From NCBI RefSeq assembly GCF_014196765.1, contig NZ_JACIEE010000006.1:140963-172962 (forward strand): 32,000 nt of DNA, read 5' to 3'. The position numbers were made by a program, and so were the translations under genes. The notes under the pieces are model-generated. The model saw only the letters and a program-made list of their open reading frames with translations. It had not been told where the DNA came from and made no database searches. The stretch comes from Mycoplana azooxidifex. GTDB taxonomy: Bacteria > Pseudomonadota > Alphaproteobacteria > Rhizobiales > Rhizobiaceae. Below are positions 25,151 through 32,000 of the stretch, in pieces. The first letter of the stretch is position 1. Every line of letters starts with the position of its first letter.

Positions 25151-25785
25151 CGGTGCTCCCCTCCTCCGGTCGCCGCGCGTATTCCGACGCGGGATCCCGG
25201 TATGCTGCTCATGGGCAGATCCGCCAACTGCGTGCGCAGCGACGATGGTCCGGCAATATGCAAGCTTGTCTCCTCCCCAAGCAATTCCGGCAGCATCGCA
25301 TCCACCACGCCCATGTCAACCAATGCCGGCAAACCCTCCGTAAGGGCTTCCGGGTCGACCTGCTTGCACAACAGCAGGTGCCGGCTGCCGATCTGCCGGC
25401 ACAGCCAGGCGGCCAGCGAATCGGACGTGACGTTCCAGGACGGCGCGATGTCGGCATTGCGGGTCATCTGCGAGGCAAGCCACACCGGCACGCCGCCTTC
25501 CGCAAGGATCGCCTCGAACTCGGCGGGTGAACGGGCCGGCTGGAGGCGCGGATGGCGTTCGGCGATGACGATGCCGAACTGTTCCATGGCGAGAATGGCC
25601 ATCTCATGCGCTGCGGCATCGGAGAAATGCATCTCCCTTTGCGCGACGCGCACCTGGTCCGCAAACGGCCCGCCGCCCGGGACGATCACGAGCGGCAGGG
25701 TCGCCGTGGCCAGCACGGCAATCCATTGCTCCATCTCGATACGGCCGGCCGTGCTTCCGCCAAGCTTGACGACCAGCGGCGTCAT
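25147..25785 (-). CDS. Amino-acid-kinase-fold protein (Asp/Glu/uridylate kinase family; MfnE-like candidate)
   Basis: 212 aa starting VVKLGGS, followed by VIVPGGGPFAD, typical of the amino-acid-kinase family. ATGA overlaps at both ends. Confidence 0.7.
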   Translation of the reverse strand: MTPLVVKLGGSTAGRIEMEQWIAVLATATLPLVIVPGGGPFADQVRVAQREMHFSDAAAHEMAILAMEQFGIVIAERHPRLQPARSPAEFEAILAEGGVPVWLASQMTRNADIAPSWNVTSDSLAAWLCRQIGSRHLLLCKQVDPEALTEGLPALVDMGVVDAMLPELLGEETSLHIAGPSSLRTQLADLPMSSIPGSRVGIRAATGGGEHR

Positions 25786-26951
25786 CCCCCTTTCCTTCCT
25801 CCGTCGGTTGACGCCACGACGCGGAGCGGGACCTGCGACCGGTAGCTATCTCTTTTCCGCTCGATCTGTACGCCGACGCCACCCGGACCGAGTTCCAGCT
25901 TCTCCGCCCGCACGACCACGCGGGCGACACGCGGATTCTCGAGAATGAATGCGGCCGTCTGCTCGACAAGCGTCTCGACCAGGTCGACATGGCCTCGCCC
26001 GACAATGGCACGGATGCCGTCCATGATGAGGTCGTAGGAAACGATGTGGTGCATATCCTTCGGATCGCGGGTCACGCGCAGCACGTCCGCCGTCACGTCG
26101 AACCGCACCTTTTGCGGTTTGCCGTGTTCGAAGCTGTAGGCACCGATGTGGACGGGCAGCACGAAATCCCGCACGAAGATCTGGTCCGTGCCGAGATCCT
26201 CGTCCGCCGAACCGGGGAAATAGCCGCGGGCTGCGAGAAGGTTGAGATCGACGCCGGGAGACTTTTCGGCCGGCTGCTCACCCGGAATAAGCGCGCGAAT
26301 CTTCGCCGTTGCTTCGGCGTCGATATCGGCATTCCTGGACATGCCTTCGCAGAGCGCGCCCCGGAATCCGAGGTAATCCGGCTTGCTCGGCAGCAGTCGT
26401 GGAATGTCCGGCGCCTCCAGCGATCCCGCAAGGCCGACCATCAATCCGTGCCGGTGCCCTTCGGCGACGAAATCCGGAATGTGGTCCGGCGTCATATGAT
26501 CCAGCAGGCGCCCCTTCGATTTGTCGTCGGTATCCAGCATGATGCCGTAGAAGCCGGCTTTGGCGAACGATGTCATGACGTCCTCCTCGTATCGATGATC
26601 GGCAAAAAGGACGGCGATCAGCTTCTTCCGGCCGGCCACATCGGCCAGGGCCTCCACGCCCGCCGCGATGGGAGAGGACGGAAGAAATCCGATCTTGATG
26701 AAATCCACACCTGCCGCGGCGATCTCCTCGACCTTTGCCCGCAGCGCTGCGGGATCGCCGGAAAATTCTCCGCAAGCCGCGCTGACAAGCCTCTTGCCGG
26801 CGACGAAGGCGACCACGTCCTTGATGTGGCGAATGTCTGCCGATCCAAGCGCTCCCCGCGCCGGATCCTTGAGATCGATGATGTCCGCTCCCGCCTGCAG
26901 GACGATCTCCGCCTCCTTGCGATCTTGGACGCTGGCCAGCATCAACGTCAT
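25782..26951 (-). CDS. Fusion protein: MfnB-like (DUF556, 4-HFC-P synthase family) N-domain plus dihydroneopterin aldolase (FolB)-like C-domain
   Basis: About aa 1-222 (26286-26951) are MfnB-like (LASVQDRKEAEIVLQAGADIIDLKDP, DFIKIGF). About aa 256-366 (25854-26186) are FolB-like (IFVRDFVLPVHIGAYSFEHGKPQKVRFDV ... SYDLI ... LVETLVEQ ... VGVQIERKR). ATG 26951 follows GGGAGG at 6 nt. Confidence 0.8.
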   Translation of the reverse strand: MTLMLASVQDRKEAEIVLQAGADIIDLKDPARGALGSADIRHIKDVVAFVAGKRLVSAACGEFSGDPAALRAKVEEIAAAGVDFIKIGFLPSSPIAAGVEALADVAGRKKLIAVLFADHRYEEDVMTSFAKAGFYGIMLDTDDKSKGRLLDHMTPDHIPDFVAEGHRHGLMVGLAGSLEAPDIPRLLPSKPDYLGFRGALCEGMSRNADIDAEATAKIRALIPGEQPAEKSPGVDLNLLAARGYFPGSADEDLGTDQIFVRDFVLPVHIGAYSFEHGKPQKVRFDVTADVLRVTRDPKDMHHIVSYDLIMDGIRAIVGRGHVDLVETLVEQTAAFILENPRVARVVVRAEKLELGPGGVGVQIERKRDSYRSQVPLRVVASTDGGRKGG

Positions 26952-27104
26952 AGGACGCCTCCCGACGCACCACATCGTGTCCGGTTGTGACCAGAAAAGA
27001 TGAGTACAAGTATTGAGATTATCGGGGATTTGGTTACAAACATGGTGGGCACCTTAATCTGTACAACGCAGCCGCCTTCTCCGAAGGCGAGCGCAGGACG
27101 TGGT
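26952..27104. promoter_or_regulatory. Divergent control region between the cofactor-biosynthesis operon and the ABC module
   Basis: 153-bp spacer between divergent starts, with an AT-rich core at 26990-27070. It holds three (G/T)TACAA hexamers at 27004, 27034 and 27061, spaced 27-30 bp apart; the last is part of a TGTACA palindrome. Confidence 0.45.
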
Positions 27105-28334
27105 ATGAACATGAAGAGTACGGTGCCGAATACTCTTGTATTTTTTCTCGCCTGTTTTTTCCTGCTCGTCAATGCGCCGCAACCGATGGCGCAGCAGAAA
27201 CCCGCCGCCAAGCCCGTCACGGAAATCCGGATCGGCTATCTCAGGGCCTACGAGCCGCAACTGGCGCTTTCGGTGCTGGACATCCCTCCGGAGGATGAAG
27301 GTGTTGCCGGGGCCAACGTCGCCATCAACGACAACAATACAACCGGAAGCTTTCTCGGGCAGTCCTTCAGCCTGGACGTGGTCCAGACGAAGCGGGAGGA
27401 GGATGTCGTCCCGGTGTTCAGGGAGATGCTGGCGCGCGGCGAGAAATATGTGCTGACCGATATCTCGGCCGGGCAGTTGCTCTCCATCGCCGACCTCGCC
27501 AGAGAAAACGGCGTGCTTCTCTTCAACGTCGGTTCGACGGACGATATCCTGCGCGAGCAGGAATGCCGATCCAACGTCTTCCATACGGCACCGACCCGCA
27601 CCATGCTGGCCGACGGCCTGGCCCAGTATCTGGTCTGGAAGCAGTGGCGCACCTGGGTCCTGCTCTACGGTTCCCACGAACCGGACCAGCTTTATGCCGA
27701 TGCGATCCGGCGAGCGGCAAAACGCTTCGGCGCCAAGATCGTCGAGGAACGGCTCTACGAGGATACGGGCACGGCCCGTAGAACCGACAGCGGCGTGGTT
27801 CAGGTCCAGCGGCAGATGCCGGTCTTCACGCAGAACCTGCCGGCGCATGATGTCGTCATCGTCGCCGACGAGAGCGAGGTCTTCGGCAGCTATGTCCCCT
27901 ACCGGACCTGGGACCCGCGGCCGGTTGCCGGAACCGCGGGCCTGGTCGCTTCCTCCTGGCATCCGGCCAGCGAGCAATGGGGCGGCTCGCAGATCCAGGG
28001 CCGTTTCGAGAAGGCGACCGGACGCCGCATGCTCGGCAAGGACATGCAGGCATGGACGGCGGTCCGTATCCTCGGCGAAGCGGCGACGCGGACCAGCAGC
28101 AATGACACCGCAAAAATCGAAGCCTTCATCAAGGATGAGAATTTTTCGCTGGCTGCCTTCAAGGGCCAGAAGGTGGGCTTCCGCCGGTGGAACTGGCAGC
28201 TTCGCCAGCCGATCTTTCTCGGCGACGGACGCGGCGTGGTCTCCACCTCGCCGCAGGAGGGATTTCTTCATCAATTTTCCGAACTCGATACATTGGGAGT
28301 GGATCAGCCGGAGACGGCCTGCAATCTGAATTGA
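27105..28334 (+). CDS. Periplasmic LivK-like (type I) substrate-binding protein, quinoprotein-dehydrogenase-associated ABC system
   Basis: Sec signal MNMKSTVPNTLVFFLACFFLLVNAPQPMA|QQ followed by a roughly 380-aa type I PBP-like domain. ATG 27105 follows AGGA at 6 nt. The in-frame ATG 27000 would put 35 residues ahead of the signal peptide. Confidence 0.8.
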   Translation: MNMKSTVPNTLVFFLACFFLLVNAPQPMAQQKPAAKPVTEIRIGYLRAYEPQLALSVLDIPPEDEGVAGANVAINDNNTTGSFLGQSFSLDVVQTKREEDVVPVFREMLARGEKYVLTDISAGQLLSIADLARENGVLLFNVGSTDDILREQECRSNVFHTAPTRTMLADGLAQYLVWKQWRTWVLLYGSHEPDQLYADAIRRAAKRFGAKIVEERLYEDTGTARRTDSGVVQVQRQMPVFTQNLPAHDVVIVADESEVFGSYVPYRTWDPRPVAGTAGLVASSWHPASEQWGGSQIQGRFEKATGRRMLGKDMQAWTAVRILGEAATRTSSNDTAKIEAFIKDENFSLAAFKGQKVGFRRWNWQLRQPIFLGDGRGVVSTSPQEGFLHQFSELDTLGVDQPETACNLN

Positions 28335-28356: not shown

Positions 28357-29331
28357 ATGCACAGATATGCCTACCTGCTCGCGGGAACAATCGCGGCTGT
28401 CATCCAGACGGGGCCTGCCTGGGCCAACGCCGTCTACGTCTCCAACGAGAAGGACAACACCGTAACGGTCGTCGATTCCAAGACGATGGAGGTAACGAAG
28501 ACCATCAACGTGGGGCAACGGCCGCGCGGCATCACGGTTTCCCACGACGGGAAGCTTCTTTATGTCTGCGCCAGCGACGACGACACGGTCGAGATCATCG
28601 ATACGGCAACGCATCAGATCATCGGATCGCTGCCATCCGGTCCGGATCCGGAGCTGTTCGTGCTCTCCCCGGACGGCAAGACCCTCTACGTCGCCAATGA
28701 GGACGACAATCTCGTCACCGTCATCGACGTCGACAAGAAGCGCGTCATCACCGAGATACCGGTCGGCGTGGAGCCGGAGGGCATGGGCATCAGCCCCGAC
28801 GGCAAGACCATGGTGAACACCTCTGAGACCACCAATATGGCGCATTTCATCGACACCGCGACCCATGAAATCGTGGCCAACGTGCTCGTCGATTCGCGCC
28901 CGCGCTTTGCCGAATTCAAGCCGGACGGCTCGCAGGTCTGGATATCCGCCGAAATCGGCGGCACGGTCTCCGTCATAGACAATGCCTCGAGAGAAGTCGT
29001 CGAGAAGATCACGTTCGAGATCCAGGGCCTGCGCTCGGAGGCCATTCAACCCGTGGGCGTGCGGATCACCAGCGACGGCAAGAAGGCCTATGTCGCGCTC
29101 GGCCCGGCCAACCGGGTGGCGGTCGTCAATACCGAAACCTACGAGGTCGAGAAATACATCCTCGTCGGGCAGCGTGTCTGGCAGCTGGCGTTCACGCCGG
29201 ACGGCAAGACGCTGATCAGCACCAACGGCCTTTCGAACGATATCACCTTCATCGATACCGCGACCGACGAGCCCATCAAGTCCGTCACCGTCGGCGCACT
29301 GCCCTGGGGCGTGACGGTCGCACCCAACTGA
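28357..29331 (+). CDS. Secreted 7-bladed YVTN beta-propeller protein (PQQ-catabolism-associated type)
   Basis: Signal peptide ending AWA|NA. Seven units of roughly 42 aa each with xYVxNxxxxTVxVIDxxT ... (S/T)xDGK. SD GGGAGGAAAG. Confidence 0.88.
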   Translation: MHRYAYLLAGTIAAVIQTGPAWANAVYVSNEKDNTVTVVDSKTMEVTKTINVGQRPRGITVSHDGKLLYVCASDDDTVEIIDTATHQIIGSLPSGPDPELFVLSPDGKTLYVANEDDNLVTVIDVDKKRVITEIPVGVEPEGMGISPDGKTMVNTSETTNMAHFIDTATHEIVANVLVDSRPRFAEFKPDGSQVWISAEIGGTVSVIDNASREVVEKITFEIQGLRSEAIQPVGVRITSDGKKAYVALGPANRVAVVNTETYEVEKYILVGQRVWQLAFTPDGKTLISTNGLSNDITFIDTATDEPIKSVTVGALPWGVTVAPN

Positions 29332-29335
29332 GTCG

Positions 29336-29352
29336 AATTTTCAATTTTCAAT
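29336..29352. repeat. Tandem AATTTTC x2.4 immediately upstream of the SD of the small ORF
   Basis: aattttc aattttc aat is read directly from the sequence. It forms an AT-rich island in the 32-nt gap between the propeller gene and the next ORF. Confidence 0.9.
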
Positions 29353-29363
29353 GGGAGGAAACC

Positions 29364-29831
29364 ATGTCGAAATTCAAAGTCATTGCCTTTGCCGCACTCG
29401 TAGCCGGCGCCCTTTCCATGCAACACCCGGCCTTCGCCCAGTCCGACGATGACGACGATGACGACGACGCGCCCAAGGTCACCCGCGCCAGCCAGAACGT
29501 TCCGGAACTGATCCTCGGCTCGAAGGACGACAACTTCGCCGTGAACCAGAAGGATTTCGAGCTCATCGCAGGACAGGGCTACCGGTGGAAGATCACCTCT
29601 GCGGCCGGCCTCGAATACAAGTTCATGACCGACCTGTTCCGCAATGTCTGGGTGAACCAGATCGTCATCAATGATCTCGAGGTCCACATGAACGGCGCCC
29701 CGGCCTGGCTGGAATTCGATGCGGAGGGCACGATCAACGTGCAGTTCACCACGGTGCGGCCGGGTGAATATACATGGTCGGTCCCCGACCTCGCGGACAA
29801 GGGCATGACGGGAAAGATCATCATCAAGTAA
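29364..29831 (+). CDS. Small secreted acidic protein: Asp8 tract plus cupredoxin-like domain lacking Cu ligands
   Basis: SD GGGAGGAA. Signal MSKFKVIAFAALVAGALSMQHPAFA|Q, then SDDDDDDDDAP. The C-terminus GEYTWSVPDLADKGMTGKIIIK resembles the cupredoxin C-terminal motif with Cys and His replaced. High GC3 supports coding. Confidence 0.8.
   Translation: MSKFKVIAFAALVAGALSMQHPAFAQSDDDDDDDDAPKVTRASQNVPELILGSKDDNFAVNQKDFELIAGQGYRWKITSAAGLEYKFMTDLFRNVWVNQIVINDLEVHMNGAPAWLEFDAEGTINVQFTTVRPGEYTWSVPDLADKGMTGKIIIK
29445..29468 (+). repeat. (GAY)8 trinucleotide tract encoding Asp8
   Basis: gac gat gac gac gat gac gac gac, read directly in the frame of the 29364 ORF. Confidence 0.97.
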
Positions 29832-29841
29832 CGTAGTTCCA

Positions 29842-29871
29842 GCAAGCCGCGGCAACAATGCCGCCGCTTGC
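29842..29871 (+). other. Intercistronic GC-rich stem-loop (12-bp stem with 1 mismatch, 6-nt loop)
   Basis: GCAAGCCGCGGC aacaat GCCGCCGCTTGC: 11 of 12 positions pair. It starts 10 nt after the stop of the small ORF and ends 14 nt before the ATPase ATG. No U-tract follows it. Confidence 0.6.
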
Positions 29872-29885
29872 GAGAGGCACATCCG

Positions 29886-30692
29886 ATGAAACTGCAATCG
29901 CGTTCACCCGAAACGCCCCGAACCGATGAGAGAGCGGCAGTCGCCGCTCTCGAACTCGCATCGATCAGCTACAATTATGGACAACGAAAGGCACTCGACG
30001 ACGTCTCGTTTTCCATAGAGCCGGCGCGGTTCACGGTGCTTTTGGGACTCAACGGCGCCGGCAAGACGACGCTGTTCTCGCTCGTCAGCCATCTCTTTTC
30101 GCCGCGGACCGGCCGCATCCGCGTTTTCGGCCAGGATATAGACCGGAACTCGGGGCAGGCGCTCAGGCGTCTCGGCATCGTCTTCCAGGCCCGCACCCTC
30201 GATCTCGATCTCACCGTCCGGCAGAATCTCCTCTATCACGCCGCCCTGCACGGCATCGGAACGCGGGTGGCGCGGCAGCGGATCGACGAGTTACTCCACG
30301 CCATCGACCTGACCGACCGCATCGAGGAGAAGGTGCGCGGCCTCTCCGGTGGGCAGGTCAGGCGCGTCGAGATCATCCGCGCCCTGCTGCACCGGCCTTC
30401 CCTGCTGCTTCTCGACGAAGCGACTGTGGGGCTCGACATCAAGTCCCGGGCGACCATTCTGAAGGACATCCGTGCGCTCGTAGAGCGGGACGGGATCAGC
30501 GTGCTTTGGGCGACCCATCTGATCGACGAGGTCGGCCAGGCCGATCAGGTTCTCGTTCTCGACAAGGGAAAACTGGTCGCCGACGGCCCAGTGGCGACCA
30601 TTCTTTCAAGTACCGGAACGGAGACGATCAACCAGGCCTTCTCGAAACTGACCGGCATCACGGACATGAACGTCCGGGGAGGAAGGCCATGA
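29886..30692 (+). CDS. ABC transporter ATP-binding protein
   Basis: Walker A GLNGAGKTTL, signature LSGGQVRRV, Walker B LLLLDEAT. ATG 29886 follows GAGAGG at 8 nt. The ORF-track TTG 29868 lies inside the hairpin arm. Confidence 0.92.
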   Translation: MKLQSRSPETPRTDERAAVAALELASISYNYGQRKALDDVSFSIEPARFTVLLGLNGAGKTTLFSLVSHLFSPRTGRIRVFGQDIDRNSGQALRRLGIVFQARTLDLDLTVRQNLLYHAALHGIGTRVARQRIDELLHAIDLTDRIEEKVRGLSGGQVRRVEIIRALLHRPSLLLLDEATVGLDIKSRATILKDIRALVERDGISVLWATHLIDEVGQADQVLVLDKGKLVADGPVATILSSTGTETINQAFSKLTGITDMNVRGGRP

Positions 30693-31555
30693 CCGACGCA
30701 ACCGACTTCGCCGGTTCGTCCCGGGAGAAATGGACGGGCTTCTCCGCCAACCAGTACTTCATCTGCCTGAAGGGCATTCTTGTCCGAGAGTGGCTGCGAT
30801 ACCTCTCGCAGAAGGAGCGTTTCGTCTCCTCGCTGGTGCGGCCTCTGCTCTGGCTTTTCATATTCGCAGCCGGATTCCGGCAGGTACTCGGCGTCTCGAT
30901 CATTCCGCCGTACGAGACCTATGTTCTCTACGAGGTCTACATCACGCCAGGTCTGTGCGGGATGATCCTTCTCTTCAGCGGCATGCAATCCTCCTTGTCG
31001 ATGGTCTACGACCGGGAGATGGGCAACATGCGCATCCTGCTCGTCAGTCCCTTTCCGCGCTGGTACCTGCTGGTGTCGAAACTTCTGGCGGGTGTCGGGG
31101 TTTCCCTCCTGCAGGTCTATGCCTTTCTGGCGATCGCCTGGTTCTGGGACGTCAGGGCGCCGGTCGCGGGCTATTTTCTGATCCTGCCTGCCCTCTTCTT
31201 CGCAGGATTGATGCTGGGAGCGCTCGGCATGCTGTTGTCGTCGCTTGTCAAGCAACTGGAGAATTTCGCGGGGATCATGAATTTCGTGATCTTTCCGATG
31301 TATTTCGCATCTTCGGCGCTCTACCCGCTCTGGCGGGTCCAGGAGTCGAGCCCCCTGCTCTACAAGATCTGCCTCCTGAACCCGTTCACCTATGCGGTCG
31401 AACTCATTCGTTTCGCATTTTACGCACGGATCGAATGGACATCGCTTGTCGTCGTACTGGCCGTCACACTCGCCCTGCTGGGCGCAGCCATCCTGGCCTA
31501 CAATCCCGCGCGCGGCCTGACCGTCCGCAAACAGGATATGGGAGGAAGCCAATGA
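30689..31555 (+). CDS. ABC-2 type transporter permease
   Basis: 288 aa with about six hydrophobic spans and an ABC-2-like organisation. ATG 30689 forms an ATGA overlap with the ATPase stop, after GGGGAGGAAGG. The ORF-track entry starting at 30506 is an out-of-frame extension. Confidence 0.88.
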   Translation: MTDATDFAGSSREKWTGFSANQYFICLKGILVREWLRYLSQKERFVSSLVRPLLWLFIFAAGFRQVLGVSIIPPYETYVLYEVYITPGLCGMILLFSGMQSSLSMVYDREMGNMRILLVSPFPRWYLLVSKLLAGVGVSLLQVYAFLAIAWFWDVRAPVAGYFLILPALFFAGLMLGALGMLLSSLVKQLENFAGIMNFVIFPMYFASSALYPLWRVQESSPLLYKICLLNPFTYAVELIRFAFYARIEWTSLVVVLAVTLALLGAAILAYNPARGLTVRKQDMGGSQ

Positions 31556-32000
31556 ACCGGCCTGTTTTTCTCGTTCCCTTGCTCGTCGCGCTGTCGGCAG
31601 CGCCATCGGCCCGCGCCGCGGCCAACACCGATCCGGACTGGCCCTGCATCCAGCGCAAGGTGCCCGAACTCTCGATCGCGCAGGTATGGAACGGAAGCGA
31701 AATTCCCGAAAGTGCCAAGGAATGGGGAAAGGATCCCCGGCTGTCCGATCTCGCCGCCGAATTGACCAAGCGCAGTAATGCGATCGAAAATGTGCGACAG
31801 CAGATTTCCGATTATGCCTCGGCACTGCCGAAAGACCAGGTGAATGAAAGGCTGGAGCAGTTGTTCATGGCCGTGTTCGACAGGCTCAACATGGAGCGCG
31901 GTCAGATCATCTCCGGCATCGCCCGCTATGCCGGCAAGCAAAGGGACCTGGCGTCGGATATCCGGAAGAAGGCCGCGGAGATCGACAAGATGCACGCTGC
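31552..32000 (+). CDS. Secreted protein of unknown function (5' partial view; continues past the window end)
   Basis: Not in the ORF track because there is no stop in the window. ATG 31552 forms an ATGA overlap with the permease stop, after GGAGGAAG. My translation: MNRPVFLVPLLVALSAAPSARA|AANTDPDWPCIQRKVPELSIAQVWNGSEIPESAKEWGKDPRLSDLAAELTKRSNAIENVRQQISDYASALPKDQVNERLEQLFMAVFDRLNMERGQIISGIARYAGKQRDLASDIRKKAAEIDKMHA... The frame is open for all 149 codons with high GC3. Confidence 0.75.
   Translation, partial: MNRPVFLVPLLVALSAAPSARAAANTDPDWPCIQRKVPELSIAQVWNGSEIPESAKEWGKDPRLSDLAAELTKRSNAIENVRQQISDYASALPKDQVNERLEQLFMAVFDRLNMERGQIISGIARYAGKQRDLASDIRKKAAEIDKMHA

Follow-up and report, generated by a model that had tools for sequence, protein, structure and literature searches.

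What is the role of a small, acidic, secreted protein encoded between the binding components and the ATPase of an ABC transporter operon? We addressed this question for an ORF on the plus strand of a 32,000-nt stretch of DNA (hereafter the window). The ORF starts with an ATG, and a GGGAGGA Shine-Dalgarno sequence ends 5 nt upstream of this codon. Its GC3 of 0.83 is similar to that of the neighbouring genes. Three ORFs overlap it on the minus strand (29139..29897, 29348..29566 and 29579..29845); these were rejected as genes because their GC3 was below 0.68, the cut-off used for calling genes. The encoded protein is 100% identical to the hypothetical protein GGQ64_003103 of Rhizobium azooxidifex. 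Its N-terminus, MSKFKVIAFAALVAGALSMQHPAFA followed by QS, can be read as a Sec signal peptide (residues 1-25) that carries an AxA site, after which come eight consecutive Asp (Asp8, residues 28-35), a short linker and a predicted cupredoxin domain (residues ~43-155). The mature protein, whose N-terminus is QS-D8-AP, has a mass of about 14.6 kDa, a net charge of -11 and a pI of 4.3, and contains no Cys and a single His (H108). The C-terminus is GEYTWSVPDLADKGMTGKIIIK. An earlier note on this DNA had described the 155-aa ORF with its Shine-Dalgarno sequence and signal peptide, the QS-D8-AP terminus, the absence of Cys with only one His, and the C-terminal motif; each of these features was found as described.

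Table 1. Coordinates of the ORF and of the features around it in the window (gene names anticipate the assignment made below).
Feature	Coordinates	Strand	Remarks
lutA/pedA1-like periplasmic substrate-binding protein (SBP)	27000..28334	+	TIGR03863 PQQ_ABC_bind 480 bits (cut-off 413.6); Pfam Peripla_BP_6; start as listed for the ORF, true start probably near 27105-27111, ahead of the signal peptide
lutB/pedA2-like secreted seven-bladed YVTN beta-propeller	28357..29331	+	TIGR03866 PQQ_ABC_repeats 519.6 bits (cut-off 287.3)
lutC-type gene (main finding)	29364..29831	+	155 aa; signal peptide, Asp8, linker, predicted cupredoxin domain
Asp8 tract	29445..29468	+	eight Asp codons in a row, GAC/GAT mix (gac gat gac gac gat gac gac gac)
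Intergenic stem-loop, lutC-lutE	29842..29871	+	RNA fold -25.4 kcal/mol, z = -3.39 vs shuffles; no T-run after it
lutE/pedB-like ABC ATPase	29868..30692	+	TIGR03864 PQQ_ABC_ATP 336 bits (cut-off 302); likely start ATG at 29886
lutF/pedC-like ABC-2 permease	30689..31555	+	TIGR03861 PedC 391.6 bits (cut-off 241); start taken from the ORF translation
lutG-like secreted protein	31552..32000	+	interrupted by the end of the window; homology to Methylobacterium lutG-position protein

The genes flanking the ORF passed the cut-offs of all four NCBIfam models TIGR03863, TIGR03866, TIGR03864 and TIGR03861, in agreement with the earlier description of the flanks as ABC families associated with PQQ dehydrogenases. 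The extent of the operon had been underestimated, the lutG homologue that begins at 31552 having been overlooked. This lutG-like protein shares 34% identity (E 5e-22) with the 205-aa lutG-position protein of Methylobacterium crusticola, and a homologue was found in about 75 related loci. In the window the operon reads lutA-lutB-lutC-lutE-lutF-lutG, and its last three genes overlap by ATGA, the ATG of lutF overlapping the lutE stop codon and that of lutG the lutF stop. The stem-loop in the lutC-lutE spacer may either stabilise the mRNA or lower the expression of the genes downstream of it. No lutD/LanD gene is present in this operon, and neither a TonB-dependent receptor nor lanmodulin or metallophore genes were identified within the 32,000 nt. 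A C1-metabolism island lies upstream in the window, combining genes of the tetrahydromethanopterin pathway (fae, mch, fhcA/B and methanopterin biosynthesis) with a Calvin-cycle operon (cbbX, RuBisCO large subunit, fba, tkt, prk, fbp and cbbR). The LutB propeller was also matched by the AztD model, but weakly (E 5e-4) and with a score far under its cut-off.

Distribution of the ORF and its relation to LutC

Homology searches with the ORF returned 469 homologues at E<=1e-3, all bearing Rhizobiales-type names, and a relative was encoded in 193 species-level genomes. The survey of gene neighbourhoods, suggested in the earlier note, kept 80 loci, and the order SBP-propeller-ORF-ATPase-permease was retained in 80/80 loci wherever the contig was long enough. 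The propeller gene was directly 5' of lutC in 80/80 loci, and the SBP gene preceded the propeller in 78/80. LutC proteins were 67-97% identical across the 80 loci, a conservation at least equal to that of the ATPase. In Rhizobiaceae and Phyllobacteriaceae lutC has a fixed position between propeller and ATPase, and the conservation of ORF and locus goes far beyond chance. The number of homologues, the number of genomes and the retained gene order thus indicate that the ORF is real. An alignment of 29 sequences contained 62 invariant positions in the core (residues 43-155), and an Asp-rich tract followed the signal peptide in 29/29 sequences.

When 1.84 billion cluster representatives were searched with a profile, 174 relatives were found at E<=1e-3, mostly secreted proteins of 135-155 aa; known members of the family number roughly 600. 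Named members came from Methylobacterium, Azospirillum, Bosea, Hansschlegelia and Aurantimonas, and from Enterovirga, Beijerinckiaceae, Methyloceanibacter, Devosiaceae and Magnetovibrionaceae. Scans with Pfam and NCBIfam gave no model covering this family. Some distant members lie outside a lut context (locus L169), and in distant loci the genes for NosR and ApbE, a membrane electron-transfer pair, adjoin the module. Related loci adjoin PQQ dehydrogenase, cytochrome c and SBP_bac_3 genes in an xoxF/xoxG/xoxJ-like arrangement, and a c-type cytochrome gene adjoins the Azospirillum homologue of lutC.

The Methylobacterium loci allowed the family to be related to a named gene. The M. crusticola locus (L081) encodes in order a 438-aa SBP, a 334-aa propeller, a 148-aa protein (P0130), an 82-aa protein, an ATPase, a permease and a 205-aa protein. 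P0130 was recovered with the LutC family profile, and the 82-aa protein matched landiscernin, LanD (PDB 9c8w), with E 4e-14. A second locus, of M. radiotolerans type (L085), has the same order and, after it, a TonB-dependent receptor. The ORF shares 45% identity over 118 residues (E 7e-36) with the 144-aa protein that L085 encodes in the position of lutC; this 144-aa protein clusters with proteins of M. radiotolerans, M. mesophilicum and M. tardum, those of M. aquaticum and M. nodulans falling in sister clusters. The gene order of both loci equals that published for lutA-lutH of M. extorquens AM1, in which lutA, lutE and lutF have a role in La uptake (PMC7391723), and in which lutD, identical to LanD (META1p1781; UniProt C5B159), overlaps the ATPase gene (PMC11551332).

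Because the Methylobacterium loci combine the lut order with LanD, and because the L085 protein is 45% identical to the ORF, we assign the ORF as a LutC ortholog, a putative periplasmic accessory of a Lut/PedA1A2BC-type lanthanide ABC uptake system. The link to the lutC gene deleted in AM1 (META1p1780) would be made through gene position and the Methylobacterium homologues, on which it rests. With La, the AM1 lutC deletion strain lagged by 9 h and grew at 0.11 h-1 vs 0.16 h-1 for the wild type, a small La-dependent defect (PMC7391723); a literature search for LutC function with lanthanides gave this study and its preprint as the only relevant reports. The earlier note had not recognised a characterised family. 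This stands in so far as LutC has no Pfam or NCBIfam model and is biochemically uncharacterised, but the gene had already been named and deleted in AM1. The note had also stated that P. putida pedA1A2BC is required at nanomolar lanthanide, as is indeed reported (PMC6839425). This P. putida system is encoded by four genes in one operon, none of them LutC-like (PMC6839425), and LutC is therefore an accessory of the alphaproteobacterial systems examined.

Predicted fold and former copper ligands

The structure of LutC was modelled with AlphaFold2. With the 29 close homologues the pLDDT was 52, and this alignment was replaced by one of 48 diverse sequences, which gave a mean pLDDT of 87.8. Residues 41-155 were all-beta, with pLDDT of 94-98; for residues 1-40, which take in the Asp tract, it fell to 55-75, as would be expected of a disordered segment. 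When the model was compared with the PDB by Foldseek, the top matches were only cupredoxin domains (probability 1.0, E from 3e-7, 580 at E<=1e-3), among them those of multicopper oxidases, Cu-nitrite reductases, auracyanin, AcoP, plastocyanin, a CuA domain and a Cupredoxin_1 protein. At the sequence level, hhalign aligned residues 49-154 of the family profile with residues 3-98 of poplar plastocyanin, for which we used what we take to be the sequence of PDB 1PLC (probability 73%, E 3e-5). The whole domain could be aligned only with plastocyanin, amicyanin giving no meaningful alignment, and searches of PDB sequences with LutC as a single sequence or as a profile found nothing. The plastocyanin model TIGR02656 scored 13.3 bits on the ORF vs a cut-off of 87.85, and a Pfam scan of the ORF gave no cupredoxin match, Cupredoxin_1 appearing weakly in 5/48 relatives. 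These comparisons point to LutC being a cupredoxin beta-sandwich, as the earlier note had proposed from residue spacing. Of the checks suggested there, the Foldseek comparison returned cupredoxins and nothing else at the top of its list; the profile comparison was divided, no cupredoxin threshold being reached with Pfam or NCBIfam models but plastocyanin being aligned by hhalign.

The hhalign alignment places the four plastocyanin ligands His37, Cys84, His87 and Met92 opposite Leu83, Val140, Leu143 and Met148 of LutC. In 72 diverse representatives the first three positions were non-ligating, position 83 being variable, position 140 Val, Ile or Ala, and position 143 Leu, Tyr or Phe. By this alignment the type-1 copper site has been lost, three of the four ligands having been replaced and Met148 alone kept. 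The substitution of the Cys and His ligands claimed in the earlier note is therefore seen in this alignment and throughout the representatives. The database names 'copper-binding protein' and 'plastocyanin' carried by family members were rejected because the copper ligands are absent.

These results bear directly on whether LutC might carry electrons for nearby dehydrogenases as a functional blue-copper protein, in the way amicyanin serves methylamine dehydrogenase. The fold would suit such a role, some records carry the copper names just mentioned, and the Azospirillum homologue has a c-type cytochrome gene beside it. However, the mature protein has no Cys, the ligand positions are occupied by Leu, Val and Leu and are non-ligating in the 72 representatives, and the scores lie far under the Pfam and NCBIfam cupredoxin thresholds. 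A blue-copper redox role is thus essentially excluded. Nor does LutC resemble lanmodulin or other EF-hand lanthanide proteins: a Pfam scan of LutC at E<=1 gave no EF-hand family, and a homopolymeric Asp8 differs from an EF-hand loop.

Conserved carboxylates, Asp tail and LanD

In the 72 representatives, five positions of LutC were predominantly acidic: E106 (96%), E117 (94%), D119 (92%), E84 (83%) and D90 (81%). These are the most conserved polar residues across the family. E84 comes right after the residue that occupies the place of the first His ligand, and in the AlphaFold2 secondary structure E106, E117 and D119 are found in a hairpin peculiar to the family and in the turn ahead of strand 6. 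From the strand topology of cupredoxins, as opposed to the coordinates of the model, most of these carboxylates should lie at the end of the barrel that once held the copper site.

The Asp tract was compared with the distribution of LanD. Among 120 listed close homologues, 111 have at least five D/E in the six residues right after the signal peptide; the other nine have shorter Asp-rich stretches, and the longest Asp run in the clade ranges from 2 to 9. Asp tracts also occur in separate branches, as a 10-Asp run in Aurantimonas (L082), D7 in Azospirillum (L087) and D4 in Magnetovibrionaceae (L083), as well as in a GLL...NR subfamily and, at the C-terminus, in Methyloceanibacter. The cross-tabulation covered 161 loci with a complete LutC N-terminus, LanD being scored by profile match; the metagenome scan was run with a narrower alignment. 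A tail without LanD was found in 132 loci and LanD without a tail in 13; none had both, and about 16 had neither, some of the latter being scoring artefacts or short contigs. The Asp tract was therefore missing from every LutC encoded beside LanD in this set. The LanD-positive loci include two kinds, one of Methylobacterium/Bosea/Hansschlegelia type and the other represented by L146, L149 and L153 (N-terminus ...QTPSRASKK), which are much nearer to the window protein. Away from the transporter genes, lutC and LanD stand alone as a pair in Bosea (L088) and Hansschlegelia (L086). Some rhizobial loci have a longer spacer between lutC and lutE, and no LanD-like ORF was found when these spacers were searched. 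Two of the spacers, those of L016 and L018, are near-identical and may be a repeat element.

A strict either/or rule between tail and LanD was rejected, as Beijerinckiaceae L170, a genuine case in which lutC abuts the ATPase gene, and other loci have neither; since about 16 loci lack both, neither is obligatory. The exclusivity pattern and the stand-alone lutC-LanD pairs suggest a functional partnership between LutC and LanD, for which the tail would be an alternative. The pattern is suggestive, no more, because the independent lineages behind it are few, about four to five with the tail and two with LanD.

The reading that we prefer, and to which we give an even chance, is that Rhizobium LutC is an accessory of the Lut lanthanide importer in which the carboxylates and the tail handle Ln3+, the tail replacing LanD. 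According to this proposal the copper-less scaffold would present the conserved carboxylates E84, D90, E106, E117 and D119, while the flexible poly-Asp tail would collect Ln3+ with low affinity and fast exchange. The carboxylate face of the cupredoxin body may hold or orient a Ln ion or Ln-chelate, and tail and face together would pass the ion, or help to free it from its chelator, toward LutA/LutB and the LutEF permease. LanD binds Ln weakly, through a surface site with four ligands (PMC11551332). In lineages with LanD directly 3' of lutC, such a weak surface site would come from LanD as a distinct partner protein; in Rhizobium the Asp tail fused to LutC would stand in for it. We infer the metal binding, hand-off and partner contacts of this scheme, whereas the identity, fold, copper-ligand loss, conservation, synteny and distribution pattern are shown by the results described above. 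The capture or hand-off of a hard cation that the earlier note had put forward as a possible role is supported indirectly by the tail/LanD exclusivity and by the conserved carboxylates.

LutC could instead be a structural adaptor that, free of metal, docks LutB and/or LutA onto the atypical ABC-2 permease, the Asp tract serving only as a highly soluble and flexible spacer or as an electrostatic tether. ABC-2 permeases normally work without binding proteins, so that extra docking parts are plausible; lutC strictly adjoins the propeller gene, the tail is absent from many family members, and the phenotype of the AM1 lutC deletion is mild (PMC7391723). This explanation does not account for the restriction of the tail to loci where LanD, a proven Ln-binding protein, is missing, nor for the five carboxylates being the most conserved polar residues, nor for the LutC-LanD pair travelling apart from the transporter genes. 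We consider it unlikely.

Lanthanides have been inferred to enter as chelates, the complex being bound by LutA (PMC7391723; PMC11551332), and this raises the possibility that LutC and LutB recognise a Ln-metallophore complex or help to strip its metal, as opposed to handling the free ion. The constant adjacency of propeller and cupredoxin genes would fit such a role, and NosR and ApbE beside the module in distant loci hint at chemistry beyond transport. No ligand pocket or cofactor site was identified in LutC, however, and no TonB-dependent receptor or metallophore genes were identified in the Rhizobium window. We consider chelator handling improbable.

The ion concerned could also be calcium, which the earlier note had named as an alternative, LutC then handling Ca2+ or buffering divalent cations for Ca-dependent PQQ dehydrogenases. 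Poly-Asp tracts are known from general biochemistry to bind Ca2+, with low affinity and high capacity. But the partner or alternative of the tail, LanD, is a lanthanide protein, related loci have the xoxF/xoxG/xoxJ-like arrangement, and the homologous transporters are specifically needed for lanthanide-dependent growth (PMC7391723, PMC6839425). We regard a calcium function as very improbable.

A broader form of the preferred reading, in which the carboxylates and the tail handle Ln3+, can be offered tentatively, as something we would sooner doubt than assert. LutC would be the first cupredoxin repurposed for rare-earth handling, a hard carboxylate site having taken the place of the soft N2S2 copper site, and the poly-Asp tail of Rhizobiaceae and Phyllobacteriaceae would be a fused LanD equivalent. 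Tail-less LutC with LanD and tailed LutC would then be two solutions to a single periplasmic hand-off step. More speculatively, LutB propeller and LutC cupredoxin might be joined in the manner of the two nitrous-oxide reductase domains; in distant loci NosR and ApbE are still encoded beside the module.

LanM, LanD, LanP and LutA have been studied, while LutB, LutC and LutG are still simply 'exported proteins'. The LutC family is already named, and the Rhizobium form is a distinct variant with the tail and without LanD. Our literature searches found no description of the LutC fold, of its conserved carboxylates or of the tail/LanD exclusivity. New for LutC are thus a predicted fold, a candidate site for metal binding and the proposal that either LanD or a fused Asp tail is its partner; they make this former 'exported protein' a directly testable part of lanthanide trafficking. 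They also extend the lut system to rhizobia, where it lies beside formaldehyde-oxidation (H4MPT) and Calvin-cycle genes and is without LanD. Like LanD and lanmodulin, such a small beta-sandwich, free of Cys, rich in Trp and with an acidic tail that could be tuned, may be of interest for the design of rare-earth separation proteins.

Comparison with known systems

A periplasmic accessory that feeds metal to an ABC binding protein has a precedent in AztD of Paracoccus, a zinc metallochaperone of the periplasm that is built as a beta-propeller and passes its metal to the binding protein AztC. The analogy concerns LutB, as opposed to LutC, and another metal, and we know of no cupredoxin component of the Azt system. 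With PedA1A2BC of P. putida the locus shares a homologous binding protein, propeller, ATPase and permease, but the P. putida operon is without a LutC-like gene and works without LutC.

With type-1 copper cupredoxins (plastocyanin, amicyanin, auracyanin, AcoP; Cupredoxin_1), LutC shares the predicted Greek-key beta-sandwich, and it retains the C-terminal pattern G-x-Y-x-(F/W) ... G-M-x-G-K-(I/V) with the axial Met position. It differs from them by the replacement of His/Cys/His by Leu/Val/Leu in the alignment, by an extra hairpin (105-118) and by scores that do not reach the family thresholds.

The closest comparison is with the Methylobacterium lut clusters. In both cases lutC lies between lutB and lutD/lutE and encodes a protein of 140-150 aa or so with a signal peptide, and its neighbours are lutA and lutB, together with lutE, lutF and lutG. 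The Rhizobium protein, however, has an N-terminal Asp8 tail that Methylobacterium LutC lacks, and the Rhizobium operon is without lutD/LanD, no TonB-dependent receptor or lanmodulin having been identified in the window. LanD/LutD (PDB 9c8w), the weak periplasmic lanthanide chaperone of those clusters, is a disulfide-stabilised three-helix bundle (PMC11551332). Its fold is unrelated to the predicted beta-sandwich of LutC, and the two proteins have no sequence similarity. Yet LutC resembles it in being small, acidic and periplasmic, with surface carboxylates, and in being encoded just upstream of the ABC ATPase; it is the job of LanD that the Asp tail is proposed to do.

Genomic setting and the two ends of the operon

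The LutC open reading frame, which encodes the secreted, copper-ligand-less cupredoxin-like protein, lies at the border of a C1 island spanning positions 28-26975 of the window. The first part of this island is a Calvin-cycle operon containing cbbX, the RuBisCO large subunit gene, fba, tkt, prk and fbp, with a divergent cbbR, and it is followed by fhcA/B, mch, fae and genes for methanopterin biosynthesis. The scan, which covered the 32 kb apart from a few predicted genes at about 9.3-10 and 14-17 kb, identified no gene for a PQQ dehydrogenase (xoxF), lanmodulin or a TonB-dependent receptor. In Methylobacterium, Beijerinckiaceae and Azospirillum, a DUF3280 gene adjoins the lut-type genes, mostly in divergent orientation from lutA.

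At the other end of the operon, the product of the lutG-like gene shares the motifs DWPC-QRKV and GI-RYA-QR with the protein encoded at the lutG position in Methylobacterium. This homologous Methylobacterium protein gave no match to any Pfam family. LutG mutants of Methylorubrum extorquens AM1 reportedly have a strong lanthanide phenotype.

Coordinates of features in the window and at loci of LutC relatives (L-numbers)
Feature	Location	Remarks
DUF3280 gene	L081 4861-5388; L085 2409-2936; L170 3099-3680; L087 7450-7983	
4HFCP-synthase/FolB-domain gene	window 25782-26975	occupies the DUF3280 position in the Rhizobium window
Interrupted stem-loop, 12 bp, lutC/lutE intergenic	window 29842-29871	-25.4 kcal/mol, z -3.4; without T-run
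lutG-like secreted protein gene	window 31552-32000	incomplete at window end; start overlaps permease stop (ATGA)
Long lutC-lutE spacers	L016 6483-6736; L018 6483-6703	Paramesorhizobium deserti; Mesorhizobium sp. RMAD-H1
Stand-alone LutC + LanD gene pair	L086 7001-7704; L088 7001-7677	Hansschlegelia plantiphila; Bosea sp.
Divergent second paralogue + acidic helical protein genes	L084 5824-6647	upstream of distant family member P0274
NosR-like/ApbE gene regions	L083 366-2429 and 1-369; L084 10870-14187	two distant loci

The lutC-lutE interval and LanD-like proteins

The stem-loop located between lutC and lutE in the window could lead to different expression of the periplasmic (lutABC) and membrane (lutEFG) genes. 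The long spacers of P. deserti and Mesorhizobium sp. RMAD-H1 (220-250 nt) have a near-identical sequence in common; neither contains a convincing open reading frame, and the sequence may be a repeated intergenic element.

The pairs formed by LutC and the weak lanthanide chaperone LanD in H. plantiphila and Bosea sp. lie apart from transporter genes, and a gene for a PQQ-type glucose/sorbosone dehydrogenase (GSDH) is found near the Bosea pair. At L084, the second paralogue (137 aa) matched the family profile with an E-value of 7e-13; the accompanying 113-aa protein, very acidic and helical, with a sequence that includes DWADCLDALEEAFEAL, gave a weak LanD-like match (E 0.002).

Unusual members of the LutC family

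Three profile matches from Beijerinckiaceae (P0185, P0193 and P0200, locus L170 6001-6432) form a two-Cys subfamily, with cysteines at the positions equivalent to Y85 and V140 of the window protein, the latter being the canonical copper-Cys position. His is absent from position 143 in all three, and the Cys pair may be either a disulfide between neighbouring strands or the remnant of a metal site. The whole domain is duplicated in tandem in one representative, P0126 (258 aa). In the giant proteins P0137, P0166 and P0191 (1289-2680 aa), the match is restricted to the C-terminal motif region of the profile, with as many as 16 occurrences. Such repeats may belong to an unrelated type that was caught through the G-x-Y-x-W motif.

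Likeness to nitrous-oxide reductase gene clusters

Two models gave partial matches to the window propeller, each far under its own cut-off: lactonase-type NosZ, with E 3e-27, and AztD, with E 5e-4. In a member of Magnetovibrionaceae and on a metagenome contig, NosR-like and ApbE genes adjoin those for the propeller, the cupredoxin-like protein, the binding protein and the ABC-2 module. With its split propeller and cupredoxin alongside genes for ABC-2, NosR and ApbE, this arrangement is similar to a gene cluster for nitrous-oxide reductase.
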